DNA of 61,805 bases, filler included. It is 9 parts of 9 records of this genome, joined end to end, with 100 filler letters (N's around TTAATTAATTAA, not from the genome) between each part and the next. Parts side by side here need not be neighbours in the genome. Positions count along the whole stretch, not along the records: positions 18,134 to 28,476 come from SRR7504441_4077; 8 more parts are not named here. One strand, 5' to 3'. A program made the translations under genes and the position numbers. Below, one piece after another: positions 1,117-57,997 of the stretch. How positions within the stretch are numbered: position 1 is the first letter of the stretch; every line of letters begins with the position of its first letter. The notes beneath the pieces were generated by a model. The model searched no databases. It saw only the letters and a program-made list of their open reading frames with translations, and was not told the DNA's origin.

Positions 1117-1414
1117 ACCAAAAAGGGTTAAAAGGCTGCTCGAGGCGCCGGCACCAAGGCCGCAGACAATCCTCGTTTTCTGTTTGACACTTGCACTGCG
1201 GGACGGCGCGGGCCTAGCGCGGGCCGTAGCGCCCGGTAGCGCCCGGCCCGAGTATCCGTGCAGGTCTTCATCGTCTGAGCCGTTGTCCGTGCGTCCGTGG
1301 AGCCAGCGAGCCAATGACGCCAATGATTGCCTGCAACTCAGATCAGATCCGTAACCGTTACGATACAAACTGAAAGTATTTGGAAAATGGCGCAGCAGTG
1401 CAGGGCGGGTTCCG

Positions 1415-4400: not shown

Positions 4401-7400
4401 AGGAATTACTGAGAAAGCTCGAAGCCAGGTACTGCAGACCAGCAGACGTGGGAGGTGGTCAAGTGAACCAGCTGTTAAAGCAGATCGAGGAGCAGGATAC
4501 AGAGCTGGGGCAGCTTAGGCAGACAGTGGCACAACAGTCAATTGGGCCTTCCTGGCACATGGAGCGTGTCAAGGAGCTCGAGGAAGAGCTAAGCAGACTA
4601 CACCAAAACTATGACAGGCAGCCCTATGAAGTAGGCATGCAGGCTGAGGCGGCAGATAAAGGTTCACAGGAAAAGAAGATGATGCTTGGCCGGTTGAGAG
4701 AGGCCCTCGCCTCGCGCGATGAGTTCGAGAAGCAAGCGATCACTCTGAGGCTCCAGCTTGCAGAAAGTTTGGCTACAGCTGGGAACGACCAGCTTGAATC
4801 TGAAGTTATCAACAACTTATTTGCTCAGAAACAGTTCGACCAATACGCACGATCGAATTCTAATTCGACTTGGGGAGGCCTGTTTGACGACGTTGCTCGT
4901 GCCAGCGAAGAGATGGACTTCGCAGAGCTCTCAAAACTGGCTCATGATGTCGGGCTGGTACCCTTTGTGTTCTTGCATGTCTCAGATCTGAAGAGTTGCT
5001 TTCAACAAGTCAATGTCTCTCATATAGCCGACGCCAAGCGTGGATCATTCAGTTTCAAAGAGTTTGCGAGATTCGTTAAGTTATGCGTCCGAAAAATACA
5101 CATGCATGTGGCAGAAGGCAGAATGCCCACTGCCGATCTAATGCAGTGGTTGGAGATGATGACCGCATCGAGTGGCGAAGCTGTACCGCAAAACGCTCTG
5201 GCTACCGTGCCACAATCGCAGGAACCTCGTTCACGGTCACCGTCTCCATCGTCAAAGATCCGATGGAATGGGGCAGATACCAGCGTTCAGGTGTTGGAGC
5301 GCAAACTAGCTCAAGCCCAGGCACGAGCGTCGAAGGCAGCCTGGCTCGAGGAGGAGCTCGAGCAAGCCAAGGCGCGCGAGTCGAAAGAATCCACGCTGAA
5401 GGAGCAAAATCAAAGTCTAGAGAGGAAGTTGTTCCAAGCGCGGGAGGAGACACACAGGCAGGCAATAATCCGTGCCAAGGAGGTCACTGATCTGCAAGAG
5501 AAGAATCAGAAATTACAGACAACGCTGGAAGCAAAGGCGATGGCCAGCTTAGATGAAGTTTCGAAGGCCAAAATTACCCAGCTGCAACGTGAGCTCAGTA
5601 AAAGCAAATCGGCTGTGAGTGAGAAGGAAAGGGAAGTGGGTATACTGAACGCTAAGTCGAAAGAACTGGCGAGGAAGGTGCAAGAAGCATCGACTAGCCC
5701 AGTAAAGGGGCAGAAATCAGAGGTTTCAAGGACTGCTGCGGAGCTTGAGGCGGAGAATGTTGCATTGAAAGCAGCGCTCTCGAGCGCAGATGCCGAAATA
5801 GCTAGCTGTAAATATTGGCTGTCGTTACACAAAGGACTGCCAGACGCAGAAATGAACGAGCATCCCCTCGAGGCACATTTGCAGAGAGAGCTTCTGCAGG
5901 CAAAGGATAAGTTGGAGCAGGCCAAGCGCAAGGCAGAAGCAGAACTTGCGAGCCTTGCAGAAGAAGGCGGCGTAGCAAGTGCCAACCATTCTCGTGAATT
6001 GCAGGGCAGGATCGAACATCTCGAGGAGGCCAGGCAGAGTGCAGAAAGAGAACTGGGGAACATCCAAGGGCTCGCAGCAAGCAATCATGCGCTTCAAAAA
6101 AAATGCAAGGAGTTGCAAGACGAGGTCGCTAGATTGGAGGATGCGTGGAACAGCGCGGAGTCGGAAGTATCAGGCCTGAAAGAGGCAAAGAGCACTGCAG
6201 ATGGCAAGGGAGTAGCTCTCCAGGAGGCAAAGGACCTGTTTGAAGCGGAGGCTGCCGACCTCAGGGAGGCAAAGAGCGCTGCAGAGGCAGCGAATGCAAG
6301 TCTCAAGGAAGCTAACGACAACCTGGAGGAGGAGAAATGGAAGCTTGCTGAGGAGGTGTCAATCTTGAGAGAGATTAAGACATCCCTGGCGCCTCTGGAA
6401 GCAGAGTTGAGACGGCTTCACGATGTGGAGAGCAATTCGAGATTGTTGCAGGTGGAAGCTGCAAAGCTGCAAGAAGAGGCATCTCACTATAAACGAGACA
6501 AGGAGCACTACAAGGCACTTGAGGCCCAGATGGACGTCTTGCAGGAAACAAGTCAGCGCATACCGCTCCTTGAAAATCAGTTCAAGATTGAGTTGTCTTG
6601 CTTGCGGGAGTCAAAGCAGCAGCTTGAAGATGAGGTCGCTAGTCTAAGGGGAGTAAAAGCTCATGCCGAGGGACTAGAATCCCTGTTGGCAAAAGCCGAA
6701 GAAGAATCTCAAGCACTACACAAAGCGAAAAGCCGACTTCATGCTGAGATCAAAACGCTCAAGGAGACAAAACCTCCCACAGTAGCAATAGAAGAGGAGT
6801 CAGTCGAGCATGCGCGGGCGAAAGGAAGTGGAGAGCGAGCAACAGATGCCCTTTGGAAGGTCTTAGGCGAAAATACTGCCGATGCAGATGCAACATTGAC
6901 AAGGGAACTGAAAGAAGCGAATCTGCACATTGACTCGTTGATGAAGGAGCAGAGGGAGGCAAACTTGCGCATTCAGGAGCTTGAAGAGGAGGTGTCAAGA
7001 TTAAACTCTACCGAGGTCCAGATTCGTGCAGACCGACAGGAGCGAGAGATAACCAGCTTGAAGGCAAAATGCGAACAGGTGGGCGTGCTTGAGGCTGAGG
7101 TAGGAATGCTCAAGACGGCACTGTCCAGCGCATCTACAGAGCTATCAACGTTGCAGGACGAAGGAAAGCGGGCACTAAGCGTGGAGGTGGCGGAGCTTAG
7201 GCGCAAAAATGATGGCTTGAACACCGAGCTAGCAGGATTGCGCGTGGCAAATAGCCAGACTGCAGAAATGCAGACTGAATTGGCGGGGCTTCGAGCTGCC
7301 AAGCGGGTACTGGAAACAGAGGTCACTGAACAGAGACTAGCCAAGAGTGAAGCCGAGGCAGAAGTTGTCAGCCTAAAGGCGGCACTCAAGGTGGCTAAAT

Positions 7401-7843
7401 CTCGTGCATCACAGGCATCGTCACAGCGGTCTATGGACTCCATGCCGATGCATTCAGTATCGGCTGAGCCGTCGTTGCCTCAGGATTCAGTAGCTTCGGA
7501 GACGCCTTATCGACATCCATCATTTGCTACTGCTACCGAATCATCTATACCTCTCTGGTCAATATCAGAACAACAAGCCTCTCTTTCACGCAGTCCACCA
7601 GACCATCATGCTAGTGCCTCAAGGGCTTCTTTTTACTCTGCTAGTGCTTCCAGAATGTCCTCAGCTGCAAGCATGGCGCCTGGGACCTACAGCCAAACGA
7701 CTTCTGAACCTGTCTCATCCACACGAGGCACCTCTCTAGGTGTGGCACACCACAGGGCAGCTCCTACAGGGGCCTCGAGAGAACCTTCTCAACAGACCTT
7801 CTCAACTCCTCGAGACATGGAAGAATTCAACAGACTGAGGTGA
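1415..7843 (+). CDS. Giant coiled-coil protein with a Nup98/Nup145-type autoproteolysis-like domain, two internal helical repeats and an EF-hand/p25alpha-like segment
   Basis: 2142-aa ORF rich in heptads. VPRLTNPGYSTVPPIGQLQAMSEEQLRAVGQFELHRDGVGALEWLDPVDL...FESYEAETGQLRFVVPRL (about 2042-2416) resembles the peptidase S59/Nucleoporin2 domain. The repeat RRxV[KR]EIYRxxNPDKL...LEA[KR]YC occurs at about 3197-3328 and 4309-4435. A possible in-frame 39-nt intron lies at 1529-1567, and the true start is uncertain. Confidence 0.8.
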   Translation: MDSPHSPQNRGSAWRRSHMDSDATLAHPSPEERRHQDRVGWLARRGLTGRQTMLASSQQALRACEQEVGAQPVDQLILGRGQLAESKNELQELRARHAEQSLALQSSTQQVGRLEQQLAEQQGLAEARTAQLEQQVTQLEDQLRAADARTAEATGELERLRASNDAAGRPRVDSILPDVDHLWTEWSPRSPMSVKSPKAAKPKDARPSHVPRLTNPGYSTVPPIGQLQAMSEEQLRAVGQFELHRDGVGALEWLDPVDLVGAVLDGVQIERGQAQLDAEGLPSLNSRCRVTMLRMFLKQGTSIETMRAEMAAVGNTFESYEAETGQLRFVVPRLCEEEPPESPADESDVSLGSLADLLDDDNSMLSQSQSENQSHMSGRWGDLEEASPILDSTELPPKAPDSISLKESAQVAELQAQVQALEAKLVEAETAAAEVHLQKQKLEELRATVADRIQEKVRTLEAGHAATVAEMAVEHNKEIARLNDERRSGQGDAERQSEQLQDALAERDSAAGLLQKLQASMQELHGGMQEQQQVSDQMREQYESTLNEERRVHELELAAEEKHKEELQLRLHELMGKLYMLESKSVPVNLDEPERIRRRVKEIYREHNPDKLNTVNKLLDEHTGRELELLGKLEAKYCGEYEPKSEDDEPLYPISDLLKHIGRLEFESLKLAKADCEGRQQQVSALQAKISLLSEENDSLKALHKNGLEVNELKLACQQTKALTNEVARLKRALKQSEQSAASADRDVNRQNKAMISDKRQSEVEADKFCRAKERECEKQINEVQAACDKRIREIEKELRDSEKHAEKLLHEVEDLEAEIQSLKGMAHSNQSLEVANARLRAEKARVGRESSPAMKAKAARQVADAEAEMLRAQNQAKEMCARAEGWEKEVARLTQLCDSLQSFRGEESPSPALSSPAPSITPNSRPSSASRASRPSPARNVTRAKSAVKPRPQQTTTPEELGSVRRQVREIYRKYNPDKLITIDKLLIQHKGREQELLRKLEARYCRPADVGGGQVNQLLKQIEEQDTELGQLRQTVAQQSIGPSWHMERVKELEEELSRLHQNYDRQPYEVGMQAEAADKGSQEKKMMLGRLREALASRDEFEKQAITLRLQLAESLATAGNDQLESEVINNLFAQKQFDQYARSNSNSTWGGLFDDVARASEEMDFAELSKLAHDVGLVPFVFLHVSDLKSCFQQVNVSHIADAKRGSFSFKEFARFVKLCVRKIHMHVAEGRMPTADLMQWLEMMTASSGEAVPQNALATVPQSQEPRSRSPSPSSKIRWNGADTSVQVLERKLAQAQARASKAAWLEEELEQAKARESKESTLKEQNQSLERKLFQAREETHRQAIIRAKEVTDLQEKNQKLQTTLEAKAMASLDEVSKAKITQLQRELSKSKSAVSEKEREVGILNAKSKELARKVQEASTSPVKGQKSEVSRTAAELEAENVALKAALSSADAEIASCKYWLSLHKGLPDAEMNEHPLEAHLQRELLQAKDKLEQAKRKAEAELASLAEEGGVASANHSRELQGRIEHLEEARQSAERELGNIQGLAASNHALQKKCKELQDEVARLEDAWNSAESEVSGLKEAKSTADGKGVALQEAKDLFEAEAADLREAKSAAEAANASLKEANDNLEEEKWKLAEEVSILREIKTSLAPLEAELRRLHDVESNSRLLQVEAAKLQEEASHYKRDKEHYKALEAQMDVLQETSQRIPLLENQFKIELSCLRESKQQLEDEVASLRGVKAHAEGLESLLAKAEEESQALHKAKSRLHAEIKTLKETKPPTVAIEEESVEHARAKGSGERATDALWKVLGENTADADATLTRELKEANLHIDSLMKEQREANLRIQELEEEVSRLNSTEVQIRADRQEREITSLKAKCEQVGVLEAEVGMLKTALSSASTELSTLQDEGKRALSVEVAELRRKNDGLNTELAGLRVANSQTAEMQTELAGLRAAKRVLETEVTEQRLAKSEAEAEVVSLKAALKVAKSRASQASSQRSMDSMPMHSVSAEPSLPQDSVASETPYRHPSFATATESSIPLWSISEQQASLSRSPPDHHASASRASFYSASASRMSSAASMAPGTYSQTTSEPVSSTRGTSLGVAHHRAAPTGASREPSQQTFSTPRDMEEFNRLR

Positions 7844-8322: not shown

Positions 8323-8422
8323 NNNNNNNNNNNNNNNNNNNNNNNNNNNNNNNNNNNNNNNNNNNNTTAATTAATTAANNNNNNNNNNNNNNNNNNNNNN
8401 NNNNNNNNNNNNNNNNNNNNNN
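8323..8422. other. Artificial contig linker
   Basis: 44 N + TTAATTAATTAA (stops in all six frames) + 44 N. Confidence 0.99.
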
Positions 8423-18033: not shown

Positions 18034-18133
18034 NNNNNNNNNNNNNNNNNNNNNNNNNNNNNNNNNNNNNNNNNNNNTTAATTAATTAANNNNNNNNNNN
18101 NNNNNNNNNNNNNNNNNNNNNNNNNNNNNNNNN
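18034..18133. other. Artificial contig linker
   Basis: Same 100-nt N/TTAATTAATTAA/N spacer. Confidence 0.99.
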
Positions 18134-18294
18134 CGTGTTCGAGGTATTTTATTTATCGGAACGAATTCGAAAATGGCGGGAGCCGACCCACAGTAGTAGA
18201 GTTGTTAGGACCTTTACTTGATTAAAGCAGTTCCTGAGGCAGAAAAAAATGTAGTATTTACTCGTACATTGATTATGAGGCTGACTTAATTAAA

Positions 18295-21200
18295 TTAATT
18301 GATCGAACCTGCAGGCGCACTCTGAATGACCTCCACCATTTCGGTGTAACAAGATTTGCCCACAATGACGTTGCCCTTAGCGTTGTTGAATATGTGACTC
18401 TTTTCCATCCAGCCCCTTCCTCGATCCTGAACGTTTAGACCAAGTCCAGAATTAGTGTGTATGCTACATCCATAGAATGTTGGATGAGATTCTGTCTTGA
18501 TTTCGACACCGTGGGCCGGATTCTTGGTACCATTACCAAAGATCTCACAGTCGCGCAGGGTGCACAGTGACTTTTGTATTGCTACCAGGCCTTGCTTCTT
18601 GCACTGCGAGATGGTGCACCCTTGCAACGTAGCACAGTCAGACGCACATCTATGTACAGCTCTATCATCGATTTGTGCAGACATTGGGTTACTCTTGATA
18701 GGGTGGAGTGTACCTTCAAGTTCAGGATTAGATCCTTCCATCGAAATATATACACCAACACCGCCACATTCGCTGACCACGCATTGACGAAACGTTCCTT
18801 TACCTCCATCCAAGATGTGTACCCCGTGAAAGCTTCCTTTCTGGACGGTGCACTGCTCAAAGGTGGGGTCGCCACCGCCTGTAATCCAATCATCAAACCT
18901 CAGGTTAAGACTATCGACAGGGGCTCACCTTCAACAACAACAGACCGGTCTTGGATCGAATGTATCACACACCTGCAGGTCAGCATCTCAGAATCTAACT
19001 TGTGCAGCACACAAAAGCAATATTATTTTCAATCCAGACCCTTCCAGGGAAGGCGCCGCTTCTTTTGCAACGTGAACTCCATTGCCCTCGCAAGTGTGTA
19101 TCGTGCAGCATACAAGGCGCACAGAAGCTCCATCGGTGGCGAGTACACCTTTTGAACACCCAAAATCACAAGGGTCAAATGAAAGCTACAAGCAGCTTGG
19201 AGTGACCGTCATGCGAAAAGTCTGAGAGTGTACATCCCTCGAGCACCCCACCTCCATTGCTTGCGAGTAGCCCATGAAGGACGCCATGAATGATGGTACA
19301 TTCTGTGAGACATGGACTTGCGTGATCGAAAATTTCCACCCCACATCCCTGATTACCATCTAGTGTGCAATGATGCAGAATGCCACCGACTGAGCGACCT
19401 CTGAAACATGCTCCAGCGGCCCCAGATGCCGTGAGAAGACACTGCTTCAAATGTGGATGGGATCCCCTGTCCTCGACCAGCAATCCTGCGCCCGAATTCG
19501 ATCCCACAGTACATCCCACAAGCTCCCCAGCTCCGCCGCGTTTGACATAAACACCTGGAAACGACACAAGTCAAGATCAGTCGAAGGCGACACATATTGC
19601 GTAGGCTGTGATAAGGCACACCGTGAGAAGCTCCATTCAAGATCTCACAGTTGGCCAGTAGAGGAGAGCTTTCGTTCTCGATCAAGACCTGCATCAATCA
19701 ACACAAGTTCACAGGCCACACAACGGGCCAATGCTCTACCTGCGGCCTTGCGTGTCCTGTGAGCTGGCAACGCTCAAGATGCCCCCGACCAGATTCATTT
19801 GCAAATAAAGCACTTGTCTGACCATCGCGCAGGATGCACTCTGTCAACACCTACAAGATCACAGCAGAGGGTCACACTCGATCTATGCTGCATAAAACCG
19901 GATCGCCACCAGACGTTGTTGCAAGCGAGGCACCCTGTTGCCATTGCACCACACAGCGCACAAAATCACCTGAAACAGGAACAAAAGGGTGTGAGTCCAT
20001 TAAGATAATGCAAGATGAACCTGTTCCGTTGTTACATACAAAAATCCCGGCTTGTTGCCCATGTTGTATCATGCAGTCTTCGAAAGTCGGCGCAGCATTC
20101 GTCGACACTTGAATACTATGCGACGTGCAATTGGTGATCAACAAATTCTTAAAGACTCCCTGTCAGATCAACAATCTGAGACTAAGTTAAGAGACGCTGT
20201 CCGACCTTGCCGCAATCACGAGCATGGACCGCGCTAGTGTTCAAATCCAGTGTACAATTATCCATAAGTGGGTCCGCCCCAGAAGCAACCGCGAAACCAG
20301 TGCCCTTGTTTCGTGCCAATGAGCACCCTGCAGACAATGCGGTGATATTTTGCCTAAAAGGAAAGCACCGTTGAACTGTCCTCGGCCACCGTCCAGGGTA
20401 CTGACACCTTCCCTCTCCCCATCCGAAAGCTGGCAGTTGGAGACAGTCGGATGGCCTGCCTTGGTCGTCTGCACTGCTGCTAATCTGCACACAAAAGATT
20501 ATATTCGATGTGGACAAGGCGCATGGAGCTCACTTGTTGTGTGACACGGTGCAATTCTCGAAAGTGCCAAGACCGTCATGGGTTACTTTTACACCAGTCC
20601 CCTATCGATTTGCAAGAGTCAGAAATCTACTGAGCATTCTCTCAACCTGGTTGCACGTTATGACGCACTGGATTAGCTTTGGATTCCCACGTTTGGCAAT
20701 TCCAACACCATCTCCCTGCAAGAAACAGCAATGTGATCCCACCAGCACTTAAATATGCCTGACAGTCCTCGATCTTACAGTGAAGCAACTGCCCTAAGCC
20801 TTCATTGAATACTCGCAGGCCTTGCTCCAACCCTCCAGTGATGATACAGTGCTCAAGCAGCGGATCACCTGACATCGGCATACGCTTAGTTCTCAGCGAT
20901 CACTGGGCAAGGTCACCTCCAGAAGTGATCACAACTGAATGTTCAGCACAGCTCTTGATTTCACAACGCAGCATTCGTCCTTCGGCATTGTCCCGAAACA
21001 GTACACCACGTCCAAATTGCTCCCAAACCTCCGTGTCCCGAATCTGGAGCAGCGAAATGTCAGTAGCCACTTTCAGGAAGCATTCCAACACAATACCTCG
21101 GGCTTGCCCCCTGAATGGACATCGATTCCGCCGCATCGATTGTGCCGTACATGACATAGTTCGAAACTCCCTTTACCTTGTCTTCCCACCTCAATGCCGG

Positions 21201-23736
21201 AAGACTTGCCTTGGACAAACAAACATCTGATACATCTTGGATTGCTGCTGTCCGTACAGCAAAATCCAGCACCAACATTAGCTCGAACACTGCAGGTGTC
21301 AAAGTACCCCTGCACCAGCACATCAAACTAAATAAACATTAGTACACACCAAGCCATTTTCGCATATCACTACTCCTCCAGCTTTTCCATTGCGAAACGA
21401 ACAGCAACTGAACCGGGGGTCTCCAAAATCAGACACCTGGCACAATAATTGCTCAAGATTCGAAGATTTGCTTTAAAAATCACCATAAGTCCCTCTTCCG
21501 CATTATCCGCGACATCGCACATTTCAAATGTTCCATAGCCATCACTCGATACATGGATTCCTTGATGCAAGCCGCGAGAAATCAGGCAATCTTTCCACTG
21601 TGGACATCCGCGCTCTTTTATAATGACACCCTGTCGCTCCTGAATCAGCTGTGGTTCAAGGTGATAGTAATCACCTGCAGCTCGTTTTCCAAGACCCTGC
21701 ACTTGTCAAAGCTACCCATGCCATCCTGATAAACCATTACACCAACTCCACTTCCTTTCCGTATACAGCATCTGTTCAACCAATTAGCTGGAGGTTTGAG
21801 ATATTCACAAAGGCTAGAGACCTAACGAAGCAAGGGTCGCTGTGATCCAAGACGCAAACGCCAGTCCCTTTATTCTGGCTGATCATACAGTCCTCAAAGT
21901 GACCATTGCTTGCACTATCCATGAGCACACCTGACACTTCCTATTCCCACAACCGTAATCAGCAATTGGCTTGGCTACCTTGGTCATGCCCTCCATTCAT
22001 TGAGCACTTGAGCAGCATTGGCGAACCCCCAGAGCCACAGTATACATTTGCCTGCAGTCACGCTACTAACCAGTACAGCGGCAGCCAAACCTCCATGTGT
22101 GAGAGGATGTGGCAGTTGATTAGTTTGGCTTGTCCCTGATGCACATTGAAATTCTCAAATTTGTATGGTTTTGAAACAGGAAATCACCTGATGGTCACAA
22201 GAGAGGCCCTTCCTTGCGCCATCGCGCACCACGCATCCGTCCAGTGAAGGATGACCACCATGAGTGGTGTATATACCATGACCCGAATTATTCGAAATTT
22301 CGGACTGCTTAAAATGGCCTCGTCCGTCGTCGGTGACCCGGAGCCCGTGCCGCTTGGCCCCGTGAATCTTGCAGTCAGTGAAGCTTGGGTTGCCTGCAGA
22401 GGAGCATCAGTTGAACTCTGCTGCTGGTCAGGGTTGGGTGCCTGCCGTGATTGAGATGTTATCACTCAGATTATCGAATATCTCAGAGCCAGTGATCTGA
22501 GCCTCTGCATCTGATTCCACCTGCCACACCAGAAGGCTAACTGGGCCTGCGCTGCTGTCCAGCTCACATGGATCCCGCTCCCGCTGCTCTGCGAAATTTG
22601 ACATTGTTCAACATCCTGCGAGCACATCTGAGCCGCGGTGCATCTGGCCAGATGCTCACAACTCTGGCGGCAGCTTGGATGCAAAGGCCATGCGAGCCCG
22701 AACCAGTGATGGATGTCTGCACCACAGCTGACAGCGCAGTCCGTGTGCTGCCAGGCCGCTCAGGCTGGGGTCAAAGCTGGAACACACCCCGGAGCTCGAG
22801 CCTGCGCAAGGTGGGCAAACAGGATCCCGTGCCCGCTGCCAGCAGATCAGAACTATCGGGCTGCGGTGCCGAGTACCCGGTAGAAGTGACGGTGCACTGT
22901 TGGATCCTGCAACTGGCCTGTGGATCAACAGCCAGCCCCACCGCCTCGCCCTCCACGCTGCTCTGCTTGATGATGCCATCCGAGCCAGCACAGGCGGCCA
23001 CCACCTGCCGCAGCTGACAGCACGCCACATGTGCCAGCACCTGAGGGCCGCTGCTGTACAGCGCACATCCTTCCACCAGCACATGCTGCCCTGCAGCAAA
23101 CGGGCTCGCTCGCCATTAGGCCAGCAGCCACCCGCCACACTGCACTCAGGGGCAGTGAGCTCGACCGCAGGCTGGGCTCCGCTCTCGTGTTGGAGCACCA
23201 GCCCACTGATTCGCACCCCGGCCGCGCACACGCGGACCGTTGGGCACTCCTGCACCGGCTGGTGAGCATCCCGATCCCGACTGCCGGCACACCTGGAGCC
23301 AGCGCACGCGCGGGAACCCTCGGTGCTGCAGCCGCCACTCCCAGCCCAGCTGATCTCCGACCGCTTCAGCCACCGAGCCGACCAGCCGCGTGACGAAACT
23401 GCCGCCCTGGCTGCCGGCGGCTCGGGCAGGCAGGCACCTCTTGAGCGCTCCCTGGCGCAGCGGCTCCCAGGCGGCAATGAACGCGACGCAGCGACGCTGC
23501 AGCTCGACCGGGAGCGCGGCCTGGGCCTGGCTGTTCCACTTTTCGGGCAGGCCTTCCAGGTTGATCGATCGGGTGTTCAGGTTGATCCACTCTTCGTAGC
23601 TCCCTGCCCGCCGGTCGGCGCTGCAGCTGGCAGGCCCGACACCCGGCTGCACGTACACAGTGCCGCCCTCCTCCGACGCCGCCAGGGCACCCTGGATCGT
23701 GGCATGATCTTCTGGCACTCGCAACTCGAGGGGCAT
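18295..23736 (-). CDS. Intron-rich right-handed parallel beta-helix (PbH1/pectin-lyase-like, FBXO11-type) repeat protein
   Basis: The N-terminus MPLELRVPEDHATIQGALAASEEGGTVYVQPG is a typical beta-helix cap. Many exon fragments carry xCxIxxNxxxGVxV repeats (LRDCEIFGNGTKNPAHGVEIK, FYGCSIHTNSGLGLNVQDRGRG, LVGCTVGSNSGAGLLVEDRGS). The full exon structure was not resolved. Confidence 0.8.
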
Positions 23737-23877
23737 GTCCTCCCTGGCAGTGGCCTGAGCCCGAGTGGAGCACGCGCCGGCCTCAACCCGCAGTGCGAAT
23801 CGGTGAAGCGCTTTCAGTTTGTCAATCCTGAAGCTGCAGCCCGCTCAGGATTGAAATCAGCCCGGGGGGCGGGAGCC

Positions 23878-25004
23878 ATGGCATGTGTGGCGATGGCAGT
23901 GCGCCCGAGTACAGACGTGCAGCAGACGCAGAGCCAAGAGCAGGTGTACAAAAACACGATCCTCTGCGTGCTTTCGGCGATCTGTGCGGAGCGCGAGTCG
24001 CTGCCCAGAGACAGCTTCAAGACCAAGTCGCTGTCGGGCGAGAGCATGACCGTGCTCAAGCGCAAGCGCACCGGGAACCTGCCTGAGGTGGACGCGCTCT
24101 GGACATGGATGTCCCAGGTGCGCGCACGCCCCCGGGCTCTCTGAGCGCACGGGTGGACAGGACCTGGTGCCACGCATGATGGAGGGCAGCCTGAGCAAGT
24201 TTGTGTTCGCCTTCCTCACACCGGAGGAGCACAAGCTGATCGAGGCTTACGAACTCAGCGTGATCTACCTTGATCAGAGCCATGTCACCACTCATGAGGC
24301 GCACGATCTGATCAATCGCTCCTTGACCCCGGTTCTCCACTTTGTAAAGCAGAGATCTGGAGGCCTCATCATACCTGCGGATCATGTAATGGCCATGAAG
24401 ATGTGAGTGCCGCTGCCATGCTGCCCTTGGGTCGTGCTCACGGCGTGGTCTGACAGGTATCTTCGTAACGCGCCAGAGACTAAGGATAAGCCAGAGCCAG
24501 AGCCGTGCCAGTACTCGTTCTCAGATGTGGAAGAAAGCGAGGACAACAGCTCCGTCTCATTCACCAACCAAAAGAAGCTCGGAGACATATCCTGCTCAAA
24601 GTGCCGCGTCGAGGTTCGGGTGATGACCGATGATAAGATGCTCGTTCCCACTCAGGTGGGCTCGCAGGACGATGTATGTAAGATTGATCGATCGACGCAG
24701 GTGCAGCCGGACTCTGAGCCTCAGGTGCTGACACAGCAGAGCGATTCCAAAAGGCAAAAACCACTGGCGCCAAAGTTTTCAGAACCTAGCACCAGCCAGG
24801 GAATGGGCTGGTATTAAGCTCAGTGTGTTGCTCCTGATGCGTGGAGGCCGATTAGAGGCCTCATTTAAGATTGCAGTACCCTCAAGATCTGACTCAGCCT
24901 TCGACTTGAACGTTGTAGACTTGCAGATCCCCCGTAAGCGGTGCACGGGTTGAGCCATCCGTGTGCACGATAATGTACAGCTGAGCAATCCTTCTCGAAA
25001 CTAT
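23878..25004 (+). CDS. HORMA-domain protein, Hop1/ASY1/HORMAD-like (divergent)
   Basis: Spliced product QQTQSQEQVYKNTILCVLSAICAERESLPRDSFKTKSL...DALWTWMSQ/DLVPRMMEGSLSKFVFAFLTPEEHKLIEAYELSVIY...MAMKM/YLRNAP follows the meiotic HORMA pattern. Introns at 24118-24160 and 24403-24456. The 3' end is uncertain; a basic ...QIPRKR tail lies near 24950. Confidence 0.65.
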
Positions 25005-25398
25005 TGATCGGCTGCTTGACAAATGCGAAGCTTCTTCAGATCATGAGTGATGTGTTTAGCATGCAGACTGGGGTACATAAGTATAACATGTCTCGCGATC
25101 GCGCATGTAAGGCTTAGCTTGATCTTATGACGTGTGAGCTAGGCCGATCAAAGCTCTTATTTACCATGACCATGCCCCGGCTTGTATCAGTAGGACTAAT
25201 TCATTTGCGGATCAACTGGATTAAAGAGGACAATTCTAATAGAATGAGTGGGAAAATAGATACTGTAGATGTTCGTTTATTTTGAATATTAAGCCTTGGA
25301 AAATAAAAAGGAGAGAGATGTAATATTACTAGAAGATTACATGACATTGTACGTATAAACGACTACGTTGCATGAACTTTTTAATGTTGAAGCCTCAC

Positions 25399-26895
25399 TC
25401 AATTCTCCCACCATATCTTGGGCTTTCTACGTTTCCCACGGCCACTCCAGATATCGATCTTGAGCATCAGCCTCCTAAGCATAGCAAATCCAGCCAAATA
25501 CCTCCAACTGACATCCAACCAACCGGAGCCCCGATTGTACGGACACACTCGGATACATACACTACAATCTGTGTTGATCTTGGTCCAATAGCTGCACAGC
25601 CCACAGAATCAAGCCAACTGCATGCTATGCAGGCCGAGCAGCCACCCGAAGCACTTTTCGGCGTCAGTTGACCACTTGTGAACTCCTTGGAGATTGCTGC
25701 GATTATGTACTTCCTCCTCCTGCCCACTGCCGAAACTAATTGCGCGGGCAGGGCAGCCCTCAGCACATAGCAGACATTGCTCGCAGAACTCCTTGACACC
25801 GAATTTGATAGGCGTGTCGTGTGCAAGTGGCATGTCGGTGAATACCTTGCCCAGCCTCACGCGAGGCCCCAATCGCGGAGTGATCAGCAGACCGTTTCTT
25901 CCATACTCCCCGAGCCCTGCTTGGATAGCATAAGGGATTGCATTGGCAGAATCGTTCATTGAAGGGACAGCCCGGTACCCTAGGTTCCGGATGTATTGTG
26001 AAAGCGTGAGTAGTGTCAATGCGTCGCGTGAGTATCCCATACCAACCGAGGCGCTGCTCAGGGCAGAGGGAACGCTCTGGATTAATTCTCGGTCCATGGC
26101 GGTTCCTATCACGATCACATTGGGCAAAGCTTCAGCTTCTGTGTTCAAGTCGCTCTGATCAGTTGGGCAGCCACTCTGCTCACGCTTGTGCATGCTCGTT
26201 GTTTCGGTATGATGCTCTCCCTGGGTCTCTGCAGGCCTGTCTTGATGGCCGAACCCGCCTTTACGACCCGAGGCCCTTGCATCGTTATCAGCATCGAGCA
26301 GTAGGTTGTTTGGTCTCTCCTTCTGCTCGAATCGCGAATGCTTGCGCTTGTAGTGCCATCGAGTATCGTGTGCTGTGATCCCCACCACTTCTGCGCCGTA
26401 CGTTTTGGCAACTAGTTTCAGCTGCTGAGCTGCTGCCTTGGTATCGGCTACAGCCACCTTGGTGCTAGTCTGCGGCTGTAAACTGGTCATTGCATCGTGA
26501 AACCCTTCGTGCCGATCCTCATGCTGTCTCCACTCGGCCAGCCAGTCTGTCAAGTGCCACGATGCGTTGCGAAGTGCAAAGTCACGCTGGCCGAAGCCCG
26601 ACCCGCGACGATCCCATTCCTTGCTTAGCTTGCGGTGTCCGGCGAAGAACTGCGCTACTCTCTTACCAGCCACCGCCGGGTCCCACTGAGCTCTATTGAA
26701 AACATCGTCACGCTGCGACATGCGCGCGAACCTGTCTGGGTCAATGTGAAAGCCGGCGTGCGCATCTGATGACCCGGGTTGGCATCGTACGCCCGCTTTA
26801 TCCGGTGCATTCCGTAGCATCCGACGAAATCGTGCCACCAACCTCTCCAGTACTTTGAGGCCGTCAGCAGCCCTCCCCTTCAGCTTTTGCGGCAT
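25399..26895 (-). CDS. rdhA: Reductive dehalogenase-family protein (cobalamin, 2x[4Fe-4S]; RdhA/PceA-like), two exons, about 480 aa
   Basis: Exons are 26895-25646 and 25591-25399 with a GT...CAG intron at 25645-25592 (54 nt). Motifs: GAEVVGIT, GYSR...LSQYIRNLGYRAVPSMND, AGLGEYGRNGLLITPRLGPRVRLGKVFTDMPL, CEQCLLCAEGCP (CX2CX2CX3CP) and, after splicing, CFGYWTKINTDCSVCIRVCP (CX10CX2CX3CP). It ends RGKRRKPKIWWEN. The start is taken as the first in-frame ATG. Confidence 0.88.
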
Positions 26896-27254
26896 TGCGC
26901 CCCACTCGCCGTCCCGCTGGCGACAGCACTCCAGCCCTCTGCGCAAGTCCAACGCCAAGCCGTTAGACTCTACAGTATAACAAGTATTTATTGAAATCTT
27001 GTGGTGCTACCTTGGGGAGCAGGTGCCATAGCGCAAAATCTATGACTTGTACATGTATTGCTAATGATTTGAATTACCACTGGTTGAATCTCTCTCCAAG
27101 CGATCGCCTCTGTACGTGCGTACGACATACTAAACGTACACTGCAATACCATAATACTCGTACCAACTGACTTACAAGTCTTACTATTTCCTACAGATGG
27201 ATCCAAAGTTCAAAGGGCAACGCTGGTGTTTGTCTTGGTGTCGAGGGGTTCAGT

Positions 27255-28476
27255 CTAGTCTTGGTCGCTGTCCTCTTTGGGCTGCTCTTCCTCAGCTTTA
27301 TCGTCATTGGCCTCAGCAGGCTCAGCTGGCTTGTCAGCAGCTGGCTCTTCAGCCTCACCTTCAGCTGGCTCTGGATCCTTCGGTGCTGCCGCACGGCTGC
27401 AAGCAGCTCAGTCAGTCCTCACGAGTGGATGTATGGCTCAAAACATTCACCTGCGGTCGGCATTCCGGTCCTCTTGCTCGACTTGGACTCGGCTGAGACA
27501 CAACTCACGCCAACAGGCACAGCCAACCAGACCTGCTCACACCATTCTTTTCCATATCAGTGCCATCCAGATGCTCGATTGCATCCTGCCAGCGGTCATC
27601 CTGTGCTACCACGGCAGGGCGACCTTCATCGACTGCTCGTTTGAGAACTCGCCGACACCAACGCCATCACTTACATTGGCAAACACTACATCGCCATGCT
27701 TGCGCAGGAAGTCCTGCACCTGAGTCAGTCGGTGCGATACTGGCTAGCACCTTCAGATCCTGCCAGGAGGCGCCTTCCGGCATCCCTCGGACCATGACTC
27801 GCCACTGAAACCGTTTGCCTGCACCAGTGTGAGCACCGGCTGCTGGCTGTGCGTGGCCTCCATGGTCGACTGGAGCTGGCCTGCCGGACCCAGCAATCTG
27901 CACCTTAAGTGCCCGCCCTCGCTGCAGCCCACAGTCAACCGCTGGCCGGCCTGGGCTGCGCACCAATTCCGCACCGTTCATGTCAGAGACTGCCGCATTG
28001 GCTATATCAGCTTCCTCAAAATCGACAAATGCGAAGGTATTGACGCCGTTATCTTTCACCATCGCGGAGACCACCGTGCCTTGCTGCAGCGGCCAGCTCA
28101 GGGCTGCGGGGCTGCTCGGGTTGCCTTGGAGAAGAACTCGCCCAGCTCCTCCCGGTCTACCCCTCGCGGCAGGTTCCCGACGAACACCCGCTTCCCTGCC
28201 CGCCGCTCAACCGGCTGCTGCCCCTGCCTGCCACCCACCTCCTTGCGTGTCGCCACCTCTGTAGTTGACCGATATCGGGCCGCCCTTGTATCCTCCCCGG
28301 CGCGGTGGGCTACGATCCCGGCGGTAGTCCCGGTCCCGTCGATCGTAGTCCCTGCGCGAATCCCTGTCGTCCCTGCGGTAGTCCCGGTCCCGGCGGTCAT
28401 AGTCTCGGTCTCTGCGATCGTAGTCCCGGTCTCGGCGCGAGTCCCTGTCGTCTCTGCGATCGTAGTCCCTGCGCGA
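27255..28476 (-). CDS. SR-family splicing factor (RRM + pseudo-RRM) with N-terminal RD/RS-rich repeats, 5'-partial
   Basis: RVFVGNLPRGV (RNP2), FAFVDFE (RNP1) and the SRSF1-type pseudo-RRM signature ASWQDLK/DFLRKHGDV split by an intron. Several short introns, an acidic tail and a stop at 27255-27257. Confidence 0.85.
28315..28476 (-). repeat. Coding RDRDYDRR-type low-complexity repeat
   Basis: Repeated (g)tagtcccggtc(c/t)cg and gatcgtagtccctgcgcga units encoding RRDYDRRDDRDSRRDRDY... Confidence 0.85.
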
Positions 28477-28576
28477 NNNNNNNNNNNNNNNNNNNNNNNN
28501 NNNNNNNNNNNNNNNNNNNNTTAATTAATTAANNNNNNNNNNNNNNNNNNNNNNNNNNNNNNNNNNNNNNNNNNNN
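28477..28576. other. Artificial contig linker
   Basis: Same 100-nt spacer. Confidence 0.99.
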
Positions 28577-42377: not shown

Positions 42378-43565
42378 TCAACTCGGCGGGAAAGACATGA
42401 CTATGCTCTCTAAAAGCCCTGCTACCGACTGAATCCGGTCGGCATCCTCTTCGCTCAGCACCATCCGGGACCCGTCGTCAACCAGGACAAACCCCACCGC
42501 CCGCAGCACCTCACAACCCCCAAGGTGCCGCGCCACACGGTTGTGGAAAGCCTTGTTCAGCGGGAAGACTTCTCTATACTTGCCTCTCTCCTCCGGGGCC
42601 ACATCCTTGAGCAAATTGGACACCAGGCGGTGGAGCGCTCGCACAGCCGAAGTGTACTCGCTCGGTCCACAGTACTGCTTGAGCACTGTCAGAGCGTCCA
42701 CGGCACTGGACTGCGCTTCCACGTTGCTCACTGTGACGAAAGCACACGGCCCGGTCGTGTACTCATGATCCCAGCAGCCAGTGTACGCATCGGCGCAGGA
42801 CCGACAGAGGCAGTCCATCCACAGCTGGGGCACGTAAGGCGGGCAGAACGGGTCCACGTGCCCCAGCCCGCTCTCCACTTGCATCGGGGTGGGAACCGGG
42901 AACCCAACAGGCCGGCTCGGCTCGCCAGGCTCCACACAGGTCAGTGGGACATAATGATCGTGCGCCTCACTGCCCCACGAGAGCACCAGTGGTCGGCACT
43001 CGCCGAGCAGCCTCGGCGCGCAGCCGGGCTCGGCCTGTTCCTGGAGCTGCAGCCACCTGAGCGGCAGGAACGAGCCAGCCAGACCGTGGTAGCCGACTCC
43101 GTGCGTGCCCATGTCGCGCTGGGATGCGAGCAGAATCACAGGCCGACGAAGCACGTTGGCCAGCGCCAGGGTGTGCACGTTCGACAGGAAGGCCCCGTCG
43201 GCCTCCGCCTTGGCCGCGGCCTCCGCCGTCTCGGCCGAGCCCATCCCGGGATGCGCCCTCTCCAGAAGTTCCTCATACCACGCCCGGTGGGCCCCGAGTT
43301 CGTCGGTTGCAACCCGCTCCCGGAGCGCATCCCCGTGCTCGTCGGTGCCCCAGACCGCCAGGCTGACCGCCCGCACTAGACAGTTGCCGTCCGGTCTGGT
43401 CTGGATCGGAAGCACAGCGCACCCAGAGTTGGCCTGGATTTCTCGTATGAACCCGGACAGGTAGTGCAGCGCCGTGGCGTCGACACGCTCGACAGCCGAC
43501 CCCGCCGGGCAGCCAAAGGTCAGGTGCCGCGCGAGCTCGTCCTCCACAGGGCTCGTCGACTCCAT
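42378..43565 (-). CDS. OTU deubiquitinase (VCPIP1/A20-like) with a C-terminal PUB domain
   Basis: Catalytic loop PDGNCLVRAVS, ALANVLRRPVILL and His loop HDHYVPL. PUB-like LVSNLL...KYREV...NKAFHNRV...GGCEVLRAVGF. Confidence 0.88.
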   Translation of the reverse strand: MESTSPVEDELARHLTFGCPAGSAVERVDATALHYLSGFIREIQANSGCAVLPIQTRPDGNCLVRAVSLAVWGTDEHGDALRERVATDELGAHRAWYEELLERAHPGMGSAETAEAAAKAEADGAFLSNVHTLALANVLRRPVILLASQRDMGTHGVGYHGLAGSFLPLRWLQLQEQAEPGCAPRLLGECRPLVLSWGSEAHDHYVPLTCVEPGEPSRPVGFPVPTPMQVESGLGHVDPFCPPYVPQLWMDCLCRSCADAYTGCWDHEYTTGPCAFVTVSNVEAQSSAVDALTVLKQYCGPSEYTSAVRALHRLVSNLLKDVAPEERGKYREVFPLNKAFHNRVARHLGGCEVLRAVGFVLVDDGSRMVLSEEDADRIQSVAGLLESIVMSFPPS

Positions 43566-43585
43566 CGGGTCACGAGTTGACCCAG

Positions 43586-45023
43586 ATGCAATGCAACGGA
43601 TCGAGAGTGCCTGGCCGACGCCCGAACCGCCACCGTGCTGACCGCGTCGCGCGAGCGAGCCAGCAGATGACCGGGCGGGTGCTGTTCGAGGACGTTGCGC
43701 GGGCGGCCACCCGGATCCGGAGCGGGATCGTCCGCACCCCTGTGACCCACTCGCACTGGCTGTCCCAGATCTGCGGCTGCGAGGTCTGGCTTAAGCACGA
43801 GCAGCAGCTGTTCACCGGCAGCTTCAAGGAGCGGGGCGCCCGCAACGCGCTGCTCTGCCTGCCCCCGGACCGCCAACGGCAAGGGGTGGTGGCCGCGAGC
43901 GCTGGCAACCACGCGCTGGCGCTGGCCTGGCACGGGCAGCAGCTCGGGGTGCCGGTGTCGGTGCTTATGCCGGTGGTGGCCCCGCTGGCCAAGCGGCATA
44001 AGTGCGCCCAGTTCGGGGCCACTATCGTGGTGCACGGGGCCAACATCGCCGAGGCCAAGCTGCTGGCCGAGACCGACGCTCGGTTCGCTGGACTCCAGTA
44101 CATTAACGGCTATGACGACCCGGAGATCGTGGCCGGGGCCGGCACCCTGGGGATGGAACTTGTGGAGCAGCTCACTGACTTCGATTACGTGATGGTGCCG
44201 GTAGCCGCCCGCTGGGTATTAGGGTGGCTGATCGAGCGCCCGGCAGTGTGGAGGCGCTGGGTTGCTCGCTGGTGTCTCACTGGCCACCAAGACGCTCCGA
44301 CCTCAGGCCAAGGTAATCGGCGTCGAGCCGCGTAACTGTGCCTCGTTCGGGGCGGCGCTGGCCAACGGCGGTCCAACCGCTGTAGAGACCACCTCGACGC
44401 TGGCGGATGGGCTTGCAGTGCCGACCGTTGGTGCAAATGCTTTTGCGGTGGCCAAGGCCCACACGGACGACGTCTGTGTTGTGGACGAGTCGGATGTCGC
44501 ATTAGCGGTGCTCAGGCTGTTGGAGCACGAGAAGGTGATAGTGGAGGGCGGCGGGGCGGCCGGGCTGGCAGCGATCCTGCCGGGTGGGCCGTATCATACC
44601 CAGGTGCAGGGCAAGACGGTGGCGATCCCGCTGTGCGGTGGCAACATCGATGTGACAACGCTGGGGCGTGTGATAGACAGAGGAATGGCGGCCGACGGCC
44701 GGCTGGTGAGGTTTGTTGCTGAGGTGTCAGATCGGAGCGGCGGGCTGGCGCAGTGCACGGAGGTGCTCAAGAATTGTGGTGCGACTGTCAAGGACATCTT
44801 CCATGAGCGGGCATGGCTGCAGTCGGCAGTCGACCGGGTGCAGATCAAGTTCATCATCGAATGCTCGGGCGAGGAGCACTCGGCCCTCGTGTTACAGGCC
44901 ATGCTCGATGAGCGGATCGCGGTGCTGGTCTGGGGCAAGCAAGTGTACCGGCGTGATGGCTCGGCTGTCGCAACGCTCGACTCGGCCACGGGCGGCCCAG
45001 CCGAGCCGGCCCCTTTCGAATGA
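43586..45023 (+). CDS. Threonine ammonia-lyase (threonine/serine dehydratase) with an ACT domain
   Basis: PLP-Lys motif TGSFKERGA, ASAGNHA, VP/CGGAGL (intron 44201-44246), TLADGLAVP, LCGGNID and ACT-like VSDRSGGLAQ. Start is 43586 or 43667. Confidence 0.95.
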
Positions 45024-48520: not shown

Positions 48521-48540
48521 GATGCCGTTAGTCAGGCTCA

Positions 48541-49688
48541 ATGGACGGCGGGGAGGAGCCGGGCTGGGGCTCGATCTGCGAGCTGCTGGACGGGTGCCAG
48601 CCCTCGGGCCGGCTGCCACCGGAGAGCCCGCCCCCTCCACCGGCCGGCCGGCTGCTGCTCAAGGCGGACGACCTGCTCCGGCCGCCGGGCGCCCCCCCGG
48701 AGTGGGCAGCGGCCGGCCCGACCGACGCCCCGCCCCGGCCCGATCCGGTCGAGCGGCTGCTCCGCGGGTTCGGGGGGGCTGCAGGAGGTCAAGGCGGTGC
48801 TGGCGGCGGTGCGTACTGCCCGGCCGACCTGAGAGCGAGCAGAGCCCCGGCTGGGAGGAGCCAGCCGCCCAGAAGGCCCTGGCCGCCGCAGCCACCCACC
48901 AGCTGGCCCCGCCCCGGTGCTACCTCCGACGGTGCGCGGCTGGGCTGGGCCGGCAGGAGCGGCGGGCAGCTTCTTGGAGGAAGTGATCCACCGGCTGCCT
49001 GCCGAGCCGACTGGCGAGCTGGCCGCAGCCGCGTTGGCGGCCGGTCCGGAGGATCCGGAGCTCGGGCATCGGATGTACTGGCTGGCGCACTGCGACCGGG
49101 CGGGGCGGGCGGGCTGCTGGCGGATGGCGCTTCGGGTGTGCGAGCGGTTTGCTCTGTCGGGGGTCGGCAGCACGATTTGGCCTGCAGGGCTGTATCTAGC
49201 GGAGCTCTGTTGGAGCTACCCGGAGCTGGTGGCCGGCCGGCGGGTGCTCGAGCTCGGATCGGGCTCCGGGGTGACTGGGATCGCGATACAACGGCTAGGG
49301 CCGGCGGAGCTCACGCTGACAGACTACCCTGAGCACGGCTCGGTGATGGCCAATCTGCGCCACAACGTGCAGCTCAACGGGATGGCCGACGCGGTGCGGG
49401 TGCGGCCGCTCGACTGGTTGAGTGTGAGCGAGCAAGAGCTGGAAGAGCTGGCCAGCCGGACCGACTTGGTGCTGGCGGCTGATCTCGTGTAGCTGCCGGG
49501 CCGAGCGTGGCTGGACGGCGGGGCAGGTACAGCCCTGAGCTGGTGCCCGGGCTGGTGCGGGTGCTCACCACGCTGCTCCAGGCGCCTGCACCGGCCCGGC
49601 CGGCCGGAGCGGCGGGTCAGGCAAACAGCCCGCCGGAGGTGCTGCTGGCTGCGCCGCCAAGGCAGCCGGCCACGCTGGCCTCGTTCGT
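48541..49688 (+). CDS. Protein-lysine methyltransferase (Methyltransf_16; EEF2KMT/FAM86-like), multi-exon, 3'-partial
   Basis: GSTIWPAGLYLAE, VLELGSGSGVTG, LTDY, LDW and DLVLAADLV/YSPE. Confidence 0.88.
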
Positions 49689-57862: not shown

Positions 57863-57997
57863 GGCCTCAGTTCATAAACAAATAAAAAATTGTGAGCAAC
57901 GGTTGCCTCACAAATGCTCGGCCGTCCATGGGGAGTGGAGGGAGGCCGGAGCCGGTGAGCTGTCTGATGACGTTCCAGTGACTGGACGGCGGCGGGG

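Follow-up and report, generated by a model that had tools for sequence, protein, structure and literature searches.

PMC12219181 describes a "simplified cytosolic" type of reductive dehalogenase (RdhA), which is a stand-alone protein of ~395 amino acids (aa). According to PMC13101508, Ros_A3X954 of Roseobacter sp. MED193 has no twin-arginine translocation (Tat) signal, carries iron-sulfur (Fe-S) motifs at 283-294 and 337-345, and converts 2,6-dibromophenol to 2-bromophenol. The same paper reports that A0A2T7UTL8 of Pararhodobacter, which is 72% identical to Ros_A3X954, converts triiodophenol to phenol. As far as these partial sources extend, the simplified cytosolic class probably includes both enzymes. 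[quoted passage not shown] The present study describes an rdhA-like gene on the minus strand at 25399-26895 of a 61,805-nucleotide (nt) stretch of DNA (the window). We consider it likely that an uncultured marine microbial eukaryote carries this gene in its nucleus, and that the product is a Tat-less, stand-alone RdhA that has two [4Fe-4S] clusters and a site for a cobamide. In itself, the protein is unremarkable within an already known enzyme family; the novelty lies in its host, in the eukaryotic structure of its gene, and in the clade that it shares with jellyfish. We found no published rdhA gene in a eukaryotic genome in a literature search that left most subscription journals and the supplements of PMC13101508 and PMC12219181 outside its range.

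Gene model and family assignment

On the minus strand, the reading frame that starts with the ATG at 26895 meets its first stop, a TGA, inside 25645-25592, and beyond this TGA the same frame reaches a terminal TGA at 25399-25401. The 54-nt segment at 25645-25592 starts with GT, ends with CAG, is in frame, and contains the internal TGA. Without this segment, the coding sequence (CDS) is 1443 nt long and comprises 480 codons and a stop, with no internal stops. The spliced junction reads ...AEKCFG|YWTKINTDCSVCIRVCP. The gene model consists of exon 1 (25646..26895, minus strand; residues 1-416 and two bases of codon 417, based on translation and RNA contigs), a putative intron (25592..25645, minus strand; GTGGCT...TGTGCAG with the in-frame TGA, placed by a gap in homology and by low values in the predicted local distance difference test [pLDDT]), and exon 2 (25399..25591, minus strand; from the third base of codon 417 through residue 480, and the terminal TGA).

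In the HMMER alignment with PceA (4uqu_A, E 9.1e-47), an 18-residue gap falls exactly at the intron-encoded residues, and a gap was present exactly there in all 13 aligned homologues. This coincidence in PceA and 13 of 13 homologues puts the 54-nt intron beyond chance. An AlphaFold (AF2) model was obtained for the read-through form, with the TGA as a residue and an alignment of 62 sequences (pLDDT 81.1; predicted template modeling score [pTM] 0.83). In this model, the intron-encoded residues 419-433 have a pLDDT of <50, and the flanks 84-92. The length of 54 nt is in line with the ~48-67-nt introns of the adjoining beta-helix gene, and the intron of the dehalogenase gene appears to be spliceosomal-type and host-style. 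The support for the splicing of 25645-25592 comes from homology only, because no junction read was found.

A genetic code in which TGA specifies Trp, suggested by the TGA of the intron and by a TGG-to-TGA variant described below, was also considered and rejected. All 13 Trp codons are TGG, and the spliced CDS has no TGA other than its terminal stop; therefore, such a code does not explain the internal stop. It was also ruled out by open reading frames (ORFs) of 2162 and 1755 codons, both without an internal TGA, on other pieces of the bin from which the window was built.

The translation, with the intron read through, matched the reductive dehalogenase model TIGR02486 over residues 155-456 (166.2 bits against a cut-off of 160.35, E 1.5e-48). 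Among sequences with structures in the PDB, PceA 4uqu_A (E 9.1e-47) and 8q4h_A (E 1.6e-43) were followed by NpRdhA 4ras (E 3.6e-22), the match to which was confined to 4ras residues 423-580, and by QueG (E ~2e-5). With the predicted structure as a query, Foldseek ranked 8q4h_A first (2.1e-25, TMq 0.63), followed by PceA (4.9e-23), NpRdhA (~2e-16), and QueG (1.7e-6). By sequence and by model, the window protein is a member of the RdhA family with a PceA-like predicted fold. Some database sources label bacterial members of the family "epoxyqueuosine reductase", and this label favors the explanation that the window protein is an orthologue of the epoxyqueuosine reductase QueG. However, the QueG model TIGR00276 reached 49.5 bits against a cut-off of 200 and was limited to a stretch of 81 residues, the PDB match to QueG was far behind that to PceA, and the fold gave a TM of 0.31 with QueG versus ~0.6 with RdhA-type structures. 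The model score, the PDB sequence matches, and the fold comparison refute orthology to QueG, to which we assign a negligible probability.

Both [4Fe-4S] motifs are present in the spliced translation. The first, CEQCLLCAEGCP (CX2CX2CX3CP, C371-P382), is encoded at 25750..25785 (minus strand), and its four Cys are invariant in the 62 aligned sequences. The second (25540..25653, minus strand) is split by the putative intron, with C415 in exon 1 and CSVCIRVCP in exon 2, and reads CX10CX2CX3CP after splicing. C415, C444, C447, and C451 (read-through numbering) are also invariant across the 62 sequences. The stretch AGLGEYGRNGLLITPRLGPRVRL was found in the translation, and the protein ends 46 residues past the last Fe-S motif.

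The alignment pairs Tyr288 (26032..26034) with PceA Tyr246 and NpRdhA Tyr426, the proposed proton donor, Asn314 (25954..25956) with PceA Asn272, and Arg347 (25855..25857) with PceA Arg305 and NpRdhA Lys488. The three codons are on the minus strand, PceA residues follow the chain numbering of 4uqu_A, and each of the three residues is invariant in the 62 sequences. In PMC6737245, Tyr246, Asn272, and Arg305 are conserved active-site residues of PceA, and PMC5500849 gives Tyr246 as the probable proton donor. PceA Trp376 is retained as W437. Tyr382 of the PceA pocket is replaced by Asp (D443) in the window protein, and this Asp is nearly invariant in the family. In total, 62 columns are invariant across the 62 sequences, and the window protein has the conserved residue at all of them.

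An earlier sequence-only reading had proposed the 54-nt GT...CAG intron, the two Fe-S motifs (the second formed by splicing), the RdhA signature stretch, and an RdhA rather than a QueG assignment, and had named the active-site Tyr, Asn, and Arg from a remembered PceA sequence. The open frame of 480 codons, the exact homology gap, the motifs in the spliced translation, the alignment with Tyr246, Asn272, and Arg305, and the model and fold scores agree with it on each of these points.

The window protein may be divided into a core of ~395 aa, an N-terminal extension of 43 aa, and an insert of 58 aa. The extension (26767..26895, minus strand) contains 11 Lys and Arg and 3 Asp and Glu, and is modelled as a single long helix at residues 2-29. 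Basic N-terminal extensions of 36-56 residues are found in most of the eukaryote-type relatives described below, with three rows at 0, 17, and 18; the bacterial median is 18. The lineage-specific insertion (residues 197-254; 26134..26307, minus strand) was delimited by alignment. Neither the bacterial nor the jellyfish-type homologues have it, and P0002, the closest relative, has a shorter insert at this position. In the window protein, residues 211-254 of the insertion have a pLDDT of <50. There are 19 in-frame GT..AG candidates by which the insertion could be a second intron. No RNA joint supported this, and contigs of the RNA run X2 stop at 26312 and 26139, to both sides of the insertion and off the splice sites. 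The insertion was treated as coding.

No Tat signal of the RRXFXK type was recognized on inspection, which was made with no signal-peptide predictor: the N-terminus is basic (RFRRMLRN), and no hydrophobic h-region lies behind it. No adjacent rdhB was recognized, with no transmembrane predictor applied to the small ORFs; the flanks are occupied by an RRM gene and by unassigned or beta-helix ORFs. No further Pfam domain was detected in the protein. It has no second B12 domain and no reductase domain; therefore, with 480 aa, it is not of the self-sufficient NpRdhA/BhbA type of ~700 aa. Since it has no Tat leader, membrane partner, or fused reductase, the protein must be soluble, with a separate low-potential donor. 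The basic amphipathic N-terminal helix in the model and the lack of a signal peptide on inspection point to the cytosol or the mitochondrion as its location, and an N-terminus that is basic and helical would be in keeping with a mitochondrial presequence.

Bacterial relatives and a eukaryote-type clade

A word-indexed protein search gave 3474 proteins at E ≤0.001 among 8000 scored. The best relative was P0002 (58% identity, 456 aa, marine data), followed by hundreds of bacterial proteins of ~400 aa; the closest relatives (58-69% identity) are intact. At least 590 of 600 candidate stretches of species-representative prokaryote genomes encode a relative. The best 80 of these at least 590 relatives belong to Chloroflexota, Gemmatimonadota, Binatota, Pseudomonadota (SUP05/Thioglobus types), Actinomycetota, Acidobacteriota, and others. 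The bacterial genes are colinear and intronless, and the closest relatives among them encode 380-450 aa. Median identity within the bacterial family is 63% across about ten phyla. The window protein is 50-57% identical to 48 bacterial members over ungapped alignment columns, and the best local alignments by BLASTP outside P0002 and P0006 have identities of 39-49%, with two short alignments at 56-57%. No conserved gene partner was found in bacteria; the most frequent family not overlapping the rdhA ORF occurred at 16 of 83 loci. Judged by sequence, these bacterial relatives are of the simplified cytosolic type, as that type is defined in PMC12219181.

A scan of JGI metagenome contigs gave no closer eukaryotic relatives. 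The three loci found there are all of the bacterial type, with identities of 61-63% to the bacterial P0014 and 45-52% to P0002. A search of the ESM Atlas gave bacterial or archaeal RdhA clusters only.

Near-identical bacterial RdhA were noted under different phylum labels: L004 and L005 (Anaerolineae and Cellvibrionaceae), L035 and L042 (Binatia and Thermodesulfobacteriota), and L072 and L078 ("Enterobacteriaceae" and Deltaproteobacteria). The end branches of these pairs measure 0.008-0.07. This pattern points to recent transfer or to mis-binned contigs of metagenome-assembled genomes.

In a FastTree phylogeny of 213 rows, the window protein fell in a clade of 23 rows with a support of 99, and none of the 83 bacterial genome or metagenome loci was inside it. 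An unrooted tree of 54 rows (LG+C20+F+G4) was built from 14 eukaryote-type rows, each standing for a 90% cluster, and from 40 loci that were picked out of the 83 so as to cover different phyla. The 14 eukaryote-type rows formed one side of a branch with UFBoot 100 and SH-aLRT 99, and these 14 rows together with eight Acidimicrobiales/Microthrix-type rows were supported at 99/96. In a profile search, the score dropped from 681 to 636 bits after the clade, to which about 13 clusters of 5.8 billion belong. Three of the clusters in the clade carry EukProt labels: Sanderia malayensis (P0011), Rhopilema esculentum (P0129), and a "GoldUCD ... D3Y31" entry, which we take to be an Aurelia genome annotation. 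Members of the jellyfish-type clusters are encoded on contigs of 1.0-1.95 Mb. P0004 (ENA, contig of 1.57 Mb) takes a basal position in the jellyfish-type group. P0019 and P0321 represent another lineage in the eukaryote-type clade, and the branch of P0019 is long (0.95).

These sequence comparisons reveal a clade that none of the sampled bacterial sequences joins, that includes marine sequences and jellyfish gene-set proteins, and that is nested in the large Tat-less bacterial RdhA family. The gene is not a one-off, since its nearest relatives include jellyfish gene-set proteins. We infer that it was acquired from bacteria by horizontal transfer, and the nearest sampled bacteria are Acidimicrobiales-type. 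The acquisition may have been followed by the gain of the host-type intron, the basic N-terminal extension, and the disordered insertion.

Transcription, contig, and host

Three RNA runs and one DNA run were compared, as contigs, with 25000-27300. RNA contigs with ≥99% identity on the exons were present in all three RNA runs, which come from three marine studies; one of the runs is an oligo-dT library. The contigs span 26433-26907 in X1, 25912-26139, 26312-26566, and 25418-25581 in X2, and 25648-25798 and 25872-26022 in X6. The rdhA-like gene is transcribed, as its exons are present in marine RNA libraries. The RNA contigs end at 25648 and 25581, on either side of the intron. The end at 25648 is uninformative because that contig, at 151 nt, is just the length of a read. 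In the DNA-labelled run X3, one contig extends into the intron by 16 nt. Seven variants relative to the window lie within the CDS: five are synonymous, which we count as a sign of constraint, and the other two are Leu455 to Phe and Trp122 to TGA. The variant with TGA is a C>T change on the plus strand at 26530 in X2, and could be an error or a segregating null allele.

Several points weigh against the assignment of a functional eukaryotic dehalogenase. No read or RNA contig in the three RNA runs joins 25646 to 25591, and none covers 25592-25645. The nonsense change of codon 122 from TGG to TGA is present in one RNA contig of X2, at a depth of ~4; run X1 has the reference base. The Pfam Dehalogenase model PF13486 reached 19.9 bits against a gathering threshold of 24.3, and its match covers profile positions 208-306 of 306, which is the last third. 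The contig comes from a binned assembly, the pieces of which range in GC from 0.53 to 0.70. The host lineage is not fixed by the gene's own contig: a search of 1.84 billion representatives with the largest exon of the beta-helix gene gave, in the top 10, two close matches (48 and 66%) and otherwise distant repeats, some of them bacterial. The proposed substrate is deduced solely from architecture. Finally, the conservation of the family (median 63%) and the lack of a gene partner would also fit one fixed, possibly non-halogenated substrate.

Regarding the Pfam result, precomputed annotation places PF13486 on most bacterial family members, and it is absent from P0002, P0012, P0017, and P0019. 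PF13486 performs poorly on this clade, and its low score is not in conflict with TIGR02486; the TIGR02486 match, the PDB matches, and the fold outweigh the miss.

The lack of junction-spanning RNA in the three runs and the nonsense variant at codon 122 would be expected of a decaying pseudogene, in which the 54-nt segment is an unspliced insertion and the protein is truncated before the second Fe-S cluster. However, the segment is bounded by GT and AG, coincides exactly with the gap in the homologues, and is of the host intron size. The other 480 codons are open, every invariant column is kept, five of the seven variants are synonymous, and the closest relatives are intact. We consider a pseudogene to be improbable.

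The window contains eight identical 100-nt spacers (N44-TTAATTAATTAA-N44), which start at 8323, 18034, 28477, 35598, 41814, 45519, 49689, and 54862, and it consists of nine contigs concatenated across them. We take this spacer to be of the six-frame stop linker type used for joining the contigs of a bin. Since nine contigs were joined, any "same contig" argument across a spacer is void. The physical contig with the rdhA-like gene is 18134..28476 (10,343 bp, GC 0.541), between the spacers at 18034-18133 and 28477-28576.

An intron-split right-handed beta-helix repeat gene (FBXO11-like) occupies 18295..22406 (minus strand) of this contig, with exons in different frames, and may reach further upstream. 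Pfam Beta_helix matches are present there in six separate minus-strand ORF pieces in different frames. A homologue of 425 aa, P0326, is colinear with the gene across frames -3/-2/-3/-1, and the pieces are separated by GT..AG segments that measure about 48 and 67 nt. The upstream neighbor of the rdhA-like gene is an exon of an RRM (SR-like) gene at 27667..28206 (minus strand; Pfam RRM_1, E 4.2e-06). The RRM_1 match begins at profile position 23 of 70; therefore, the domain is probably intron-split. This ORF contains SWQDLK, which we take to be a motif of SR-protein pseudo-RRMs. Between the beta-helix and dehalogenase genes, the ORFs at 24050-24817 (plus strand) and 23146-24520 (minus strand) matched no Pfam family at E ≤0.01. 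The scan of 14 different ORF pieces of the contig, at thresholds of 0.01 and 1, gave no HORMA match. The rdhA-like gene has a GC of 0.551 and a GC3 of 0.59, inside the range of the low-GC contigs of the bin. By its own gene content, the 10.3-kb contig is eukaryotic.

The sequence-only reading had placed the dehalogenase gene in a eukaryotic host, on the same contig as intron-rich HORMA, beta-helix, and SR-protein genes. The eukaryotic host stands with the frame-split beta-helix gene and the RRM gene on 18134-28476, on a linkage of 10.3 kb rather than the whole window, and the HORMA gene was not recovered. It had further described a horizontally acquired and domesticated gene. The nesting of the window protein inside bacterial RdhA diversity in the trees bears out the former, and the host-style intron, the basic N-terminal extension, the lineage-specific insertion, and the presence of the exons in RNA libraries are in keeping with the latter.

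A bacterial contaminant or a chimeric contig, that is, a bacterial rdhA mis-assembled or mis-binned beside eukaryotic DNA, may be suspected because the window is a concatenated bin with uneven GC and because, among the matches listed, the taxon-labelled close family members other than the jellyfish entries are all bacterial. However, a bacterial gene would not hold an in-frame GT..AG intervening sequence with a stop codon. Moreover, the RRM gene is 770 bp away and other eukaryote-style ORFs are ~1.5 kb away, with N-free DNA between, and the exons are present in the oligo-dT RNA library. The N-terminal extension and the insertion are both missing in bacterial homologues, and no bacterial genome locus is within the clade. 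We regard contamination or chimerism as very improbable, and a eukaryotic nuclear gene as the likely explanation.

The bin suggests a pelagophyte-like ochrophyte host. The sole clue to the lineage is the ORF of a pyridoxal phosphate (PLP)-dependent enzyme on another contig, which is tied to the rdhA-like gene by binning only; its best named matches are the Pelagophyceae Chrysophaeum taylorii (72%) and CCMP2097 (66%). This ORF (43451-44335, plus strand) is of the serine racemase/threonine dehydratase type, and its matches to Pelagophyceae (66-72%) are followed by brown algae and Nannochloropsis. The first three pieces of the window (1-28476) have a GC of 0.53-0.56 and an ORF GC3 of ~0.48-0.63, and the other six (28577-61805) a GC of 0.58-0.70 and an ORF GC3 of 0.69-0.87. 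Two genomes, or two isochore-like compartments, may be combined in this bin.

Another piece has a single ORF of 2162 codons with a Nup98-96 autopeptidase S59 domain (1355-7843, plus strand); as one exon of a nucleoporin gene, free of introns, this is very long. A PD-(D/E)XK/Cas4-like nuclease ORF (50349-51479, minus strand), an OTU protease with a PUB domain (42378-43790, minus strand), a cNMP-binding protein with an EF-hand (46340-48658, minus strand), and a B-box and IPT/TIG protein (55769-57871, minus strand) were also observed on bin-mate pieces. An EGF/fn3 gene in the window is likewise a bin-mate and not a neighbor of the rdhA-like gene. Since spacers intervene, the Nup98-96, EGF/fn3, OTU-PUB, cNMP/EF-hand, and PLP-enzyme genes are all bin-mates rather than neighbors.

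Proposed function and comparison with known systems

From the conserved sequence, we infer that the window protein binds a cobamide and dehalogenates. We speculate that a soluble low-potential donor, probably of the ferredoxin or flavodoxin type, feeds electrons via the two clusters to the cobalt. The reduced cobamide would then break the carbon-halogen bond, and Tyr288, paired with Arg347, would protonate the product. The most likely substrates would be brominated or iodinated phenolic compounds of marine origin, because the only characterized enzymes of the same Tat-less, short architecture debrominate or deiodinate phenols.

Alternatively, the protein may be a real eukaryotic B12/Fe-S reductase of the RdhA fold with a non-organohalogen substrate, performing a QueG-like fixed reduction of a conserved metabolite. 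A median bacterial identity of 63% across about ten phyla, the 62 columns invariant in 62 sequences, and the relatives in at least 590 stretches of species-representative genomes would suit such a role, as would the lack of a conserved catabolic partner, with 16 of 83 loci for the most frequent non-overlapping family. The nearly invariant Asp (D443) in place of PceA Tyr382 also favors it, and suggests a more polar pocket. However, the dehalogenase-typical Tyr/Arg proton-donor pair is retained, and QueG-type models and folds score far lower. In addition, a Tat-less short reductive dehalogenase of the same architecture debrominates bromophenol in vitro, according to PMC13101508. A non-halogen substrate appears unlikely, although less so than a pseudogene, and we favor a reductive dehalogenase.

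In a broader and more tentative proposal, which we consider possible but somewhat doubtful, a eukaryote-specific RdhA clade would be a fourth B12-enzyme family, acquired once from bacteria and kept under selection in no fewer than two very distant lineages, an uncultured marine protist group and scyphozoans (Sanderia, Rhopilema, and probably Aurelia). Such a distribution would imply either that the gene passed from one eukaryote to another or that it was acquired long ago and then lost many times. The enzymes of the clade, cytosolic or mitochondrial, would dehalogenate the organisms' own or ingested halophenolics by debromination or deiodination. If true, this adds a fourth family to the three B12-dependent enzymes recognized in eukaryotes, and if RdhA works in a protist and in jellyfish, there is a new B12 demand in marine eukaryotes. 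It would also provide a new eukaryotic route of reductive dehalogenation beside the flavin and selenocysteine deiodinases, and give eukaryotes a part in the marine cycling of bromine and iodine. Iodine and iodotyrosine chemistry has long been associated with jellyfish strobilation, and the jellyfish enzymes could touch this chemistry. The gene would, moreover, be a clean case of a complex metalloenzyme, with a cobamide and two Fe-S clusters, domesticated after horizontal transfer. The source of the low-potential electrons and B12 for such an enzyme in a eukaryotic cell is a testable question that arises from these results.

Among known systems, the simplified cytosolic RdhAs resemble the window protein in having a single core of ~400 aa with two C-terminal Fe-S motifs and no Tat signal, RdhB, second B12 domain, or reductase. 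The window gene differs from these bacterial genes in its spliceosomal-type intron, its basic extension of 43 residues, its disordered insertion of 58 residues, and its separate clade. With Ros_A3X954, the comparison extends to the motif positions published in PMC13101508. The tetrachloroethene reductive dehalogenase PceA of Sulfurospirillum multivorans (4uqu, 4ur3; reductive dehalogenase complex 8q4h) gave the best structure matches, and the window protein has equivalents of its Tyr, Asn, and Arg, its Trp376, and both Fe-S motifs. In contrast to PceA, the window protein has no Tat leader and no membrane-anchor partner, its N-terminal region cannot be aligned by sequence with the substrate-channel region of PceA, and an Asp stands in place of Tyr382. 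The periplasmic, respiratory role of PceA cannot apply to the window protein.

NpRdhA and BhbA (4ras, 6zy1) are catabolic dehalogenases that act on halophenolic acids; they are cytoplasmic and non-respiratory and have cobalamin and two [4Fe-4S] clusters, as proposed for the window protein, and NpRdhA Tyr426 and Lys488 align with Y288 and R347. However, NpRdhA is ~700 aa long, has a duplicated core, and matched more weakly (E 3.6e-22; fold ~2e-16). Relatives of NpRdhA with a fused reductase are described in the literature, whereas the window protein has no extra domains. QueG belongs to the same superfamily, which combines a B12-binding core with a ferredoxin-like module of two [4Fe-4S] clusters, but has a different active site, a fold TM of ~0.3, and a model score of 49.5 against 200 bits. 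The known eukaryotic dehalogenases are iodotyrosine deiodinase, which uses flavin, and the iodothyronine deiodinases, which use selenocysteine; their folds and cofactors are unrelated to those of the window protein. They share with it the same proposed overall reaction, the reductive removal of a halogen from an aromatic ring.

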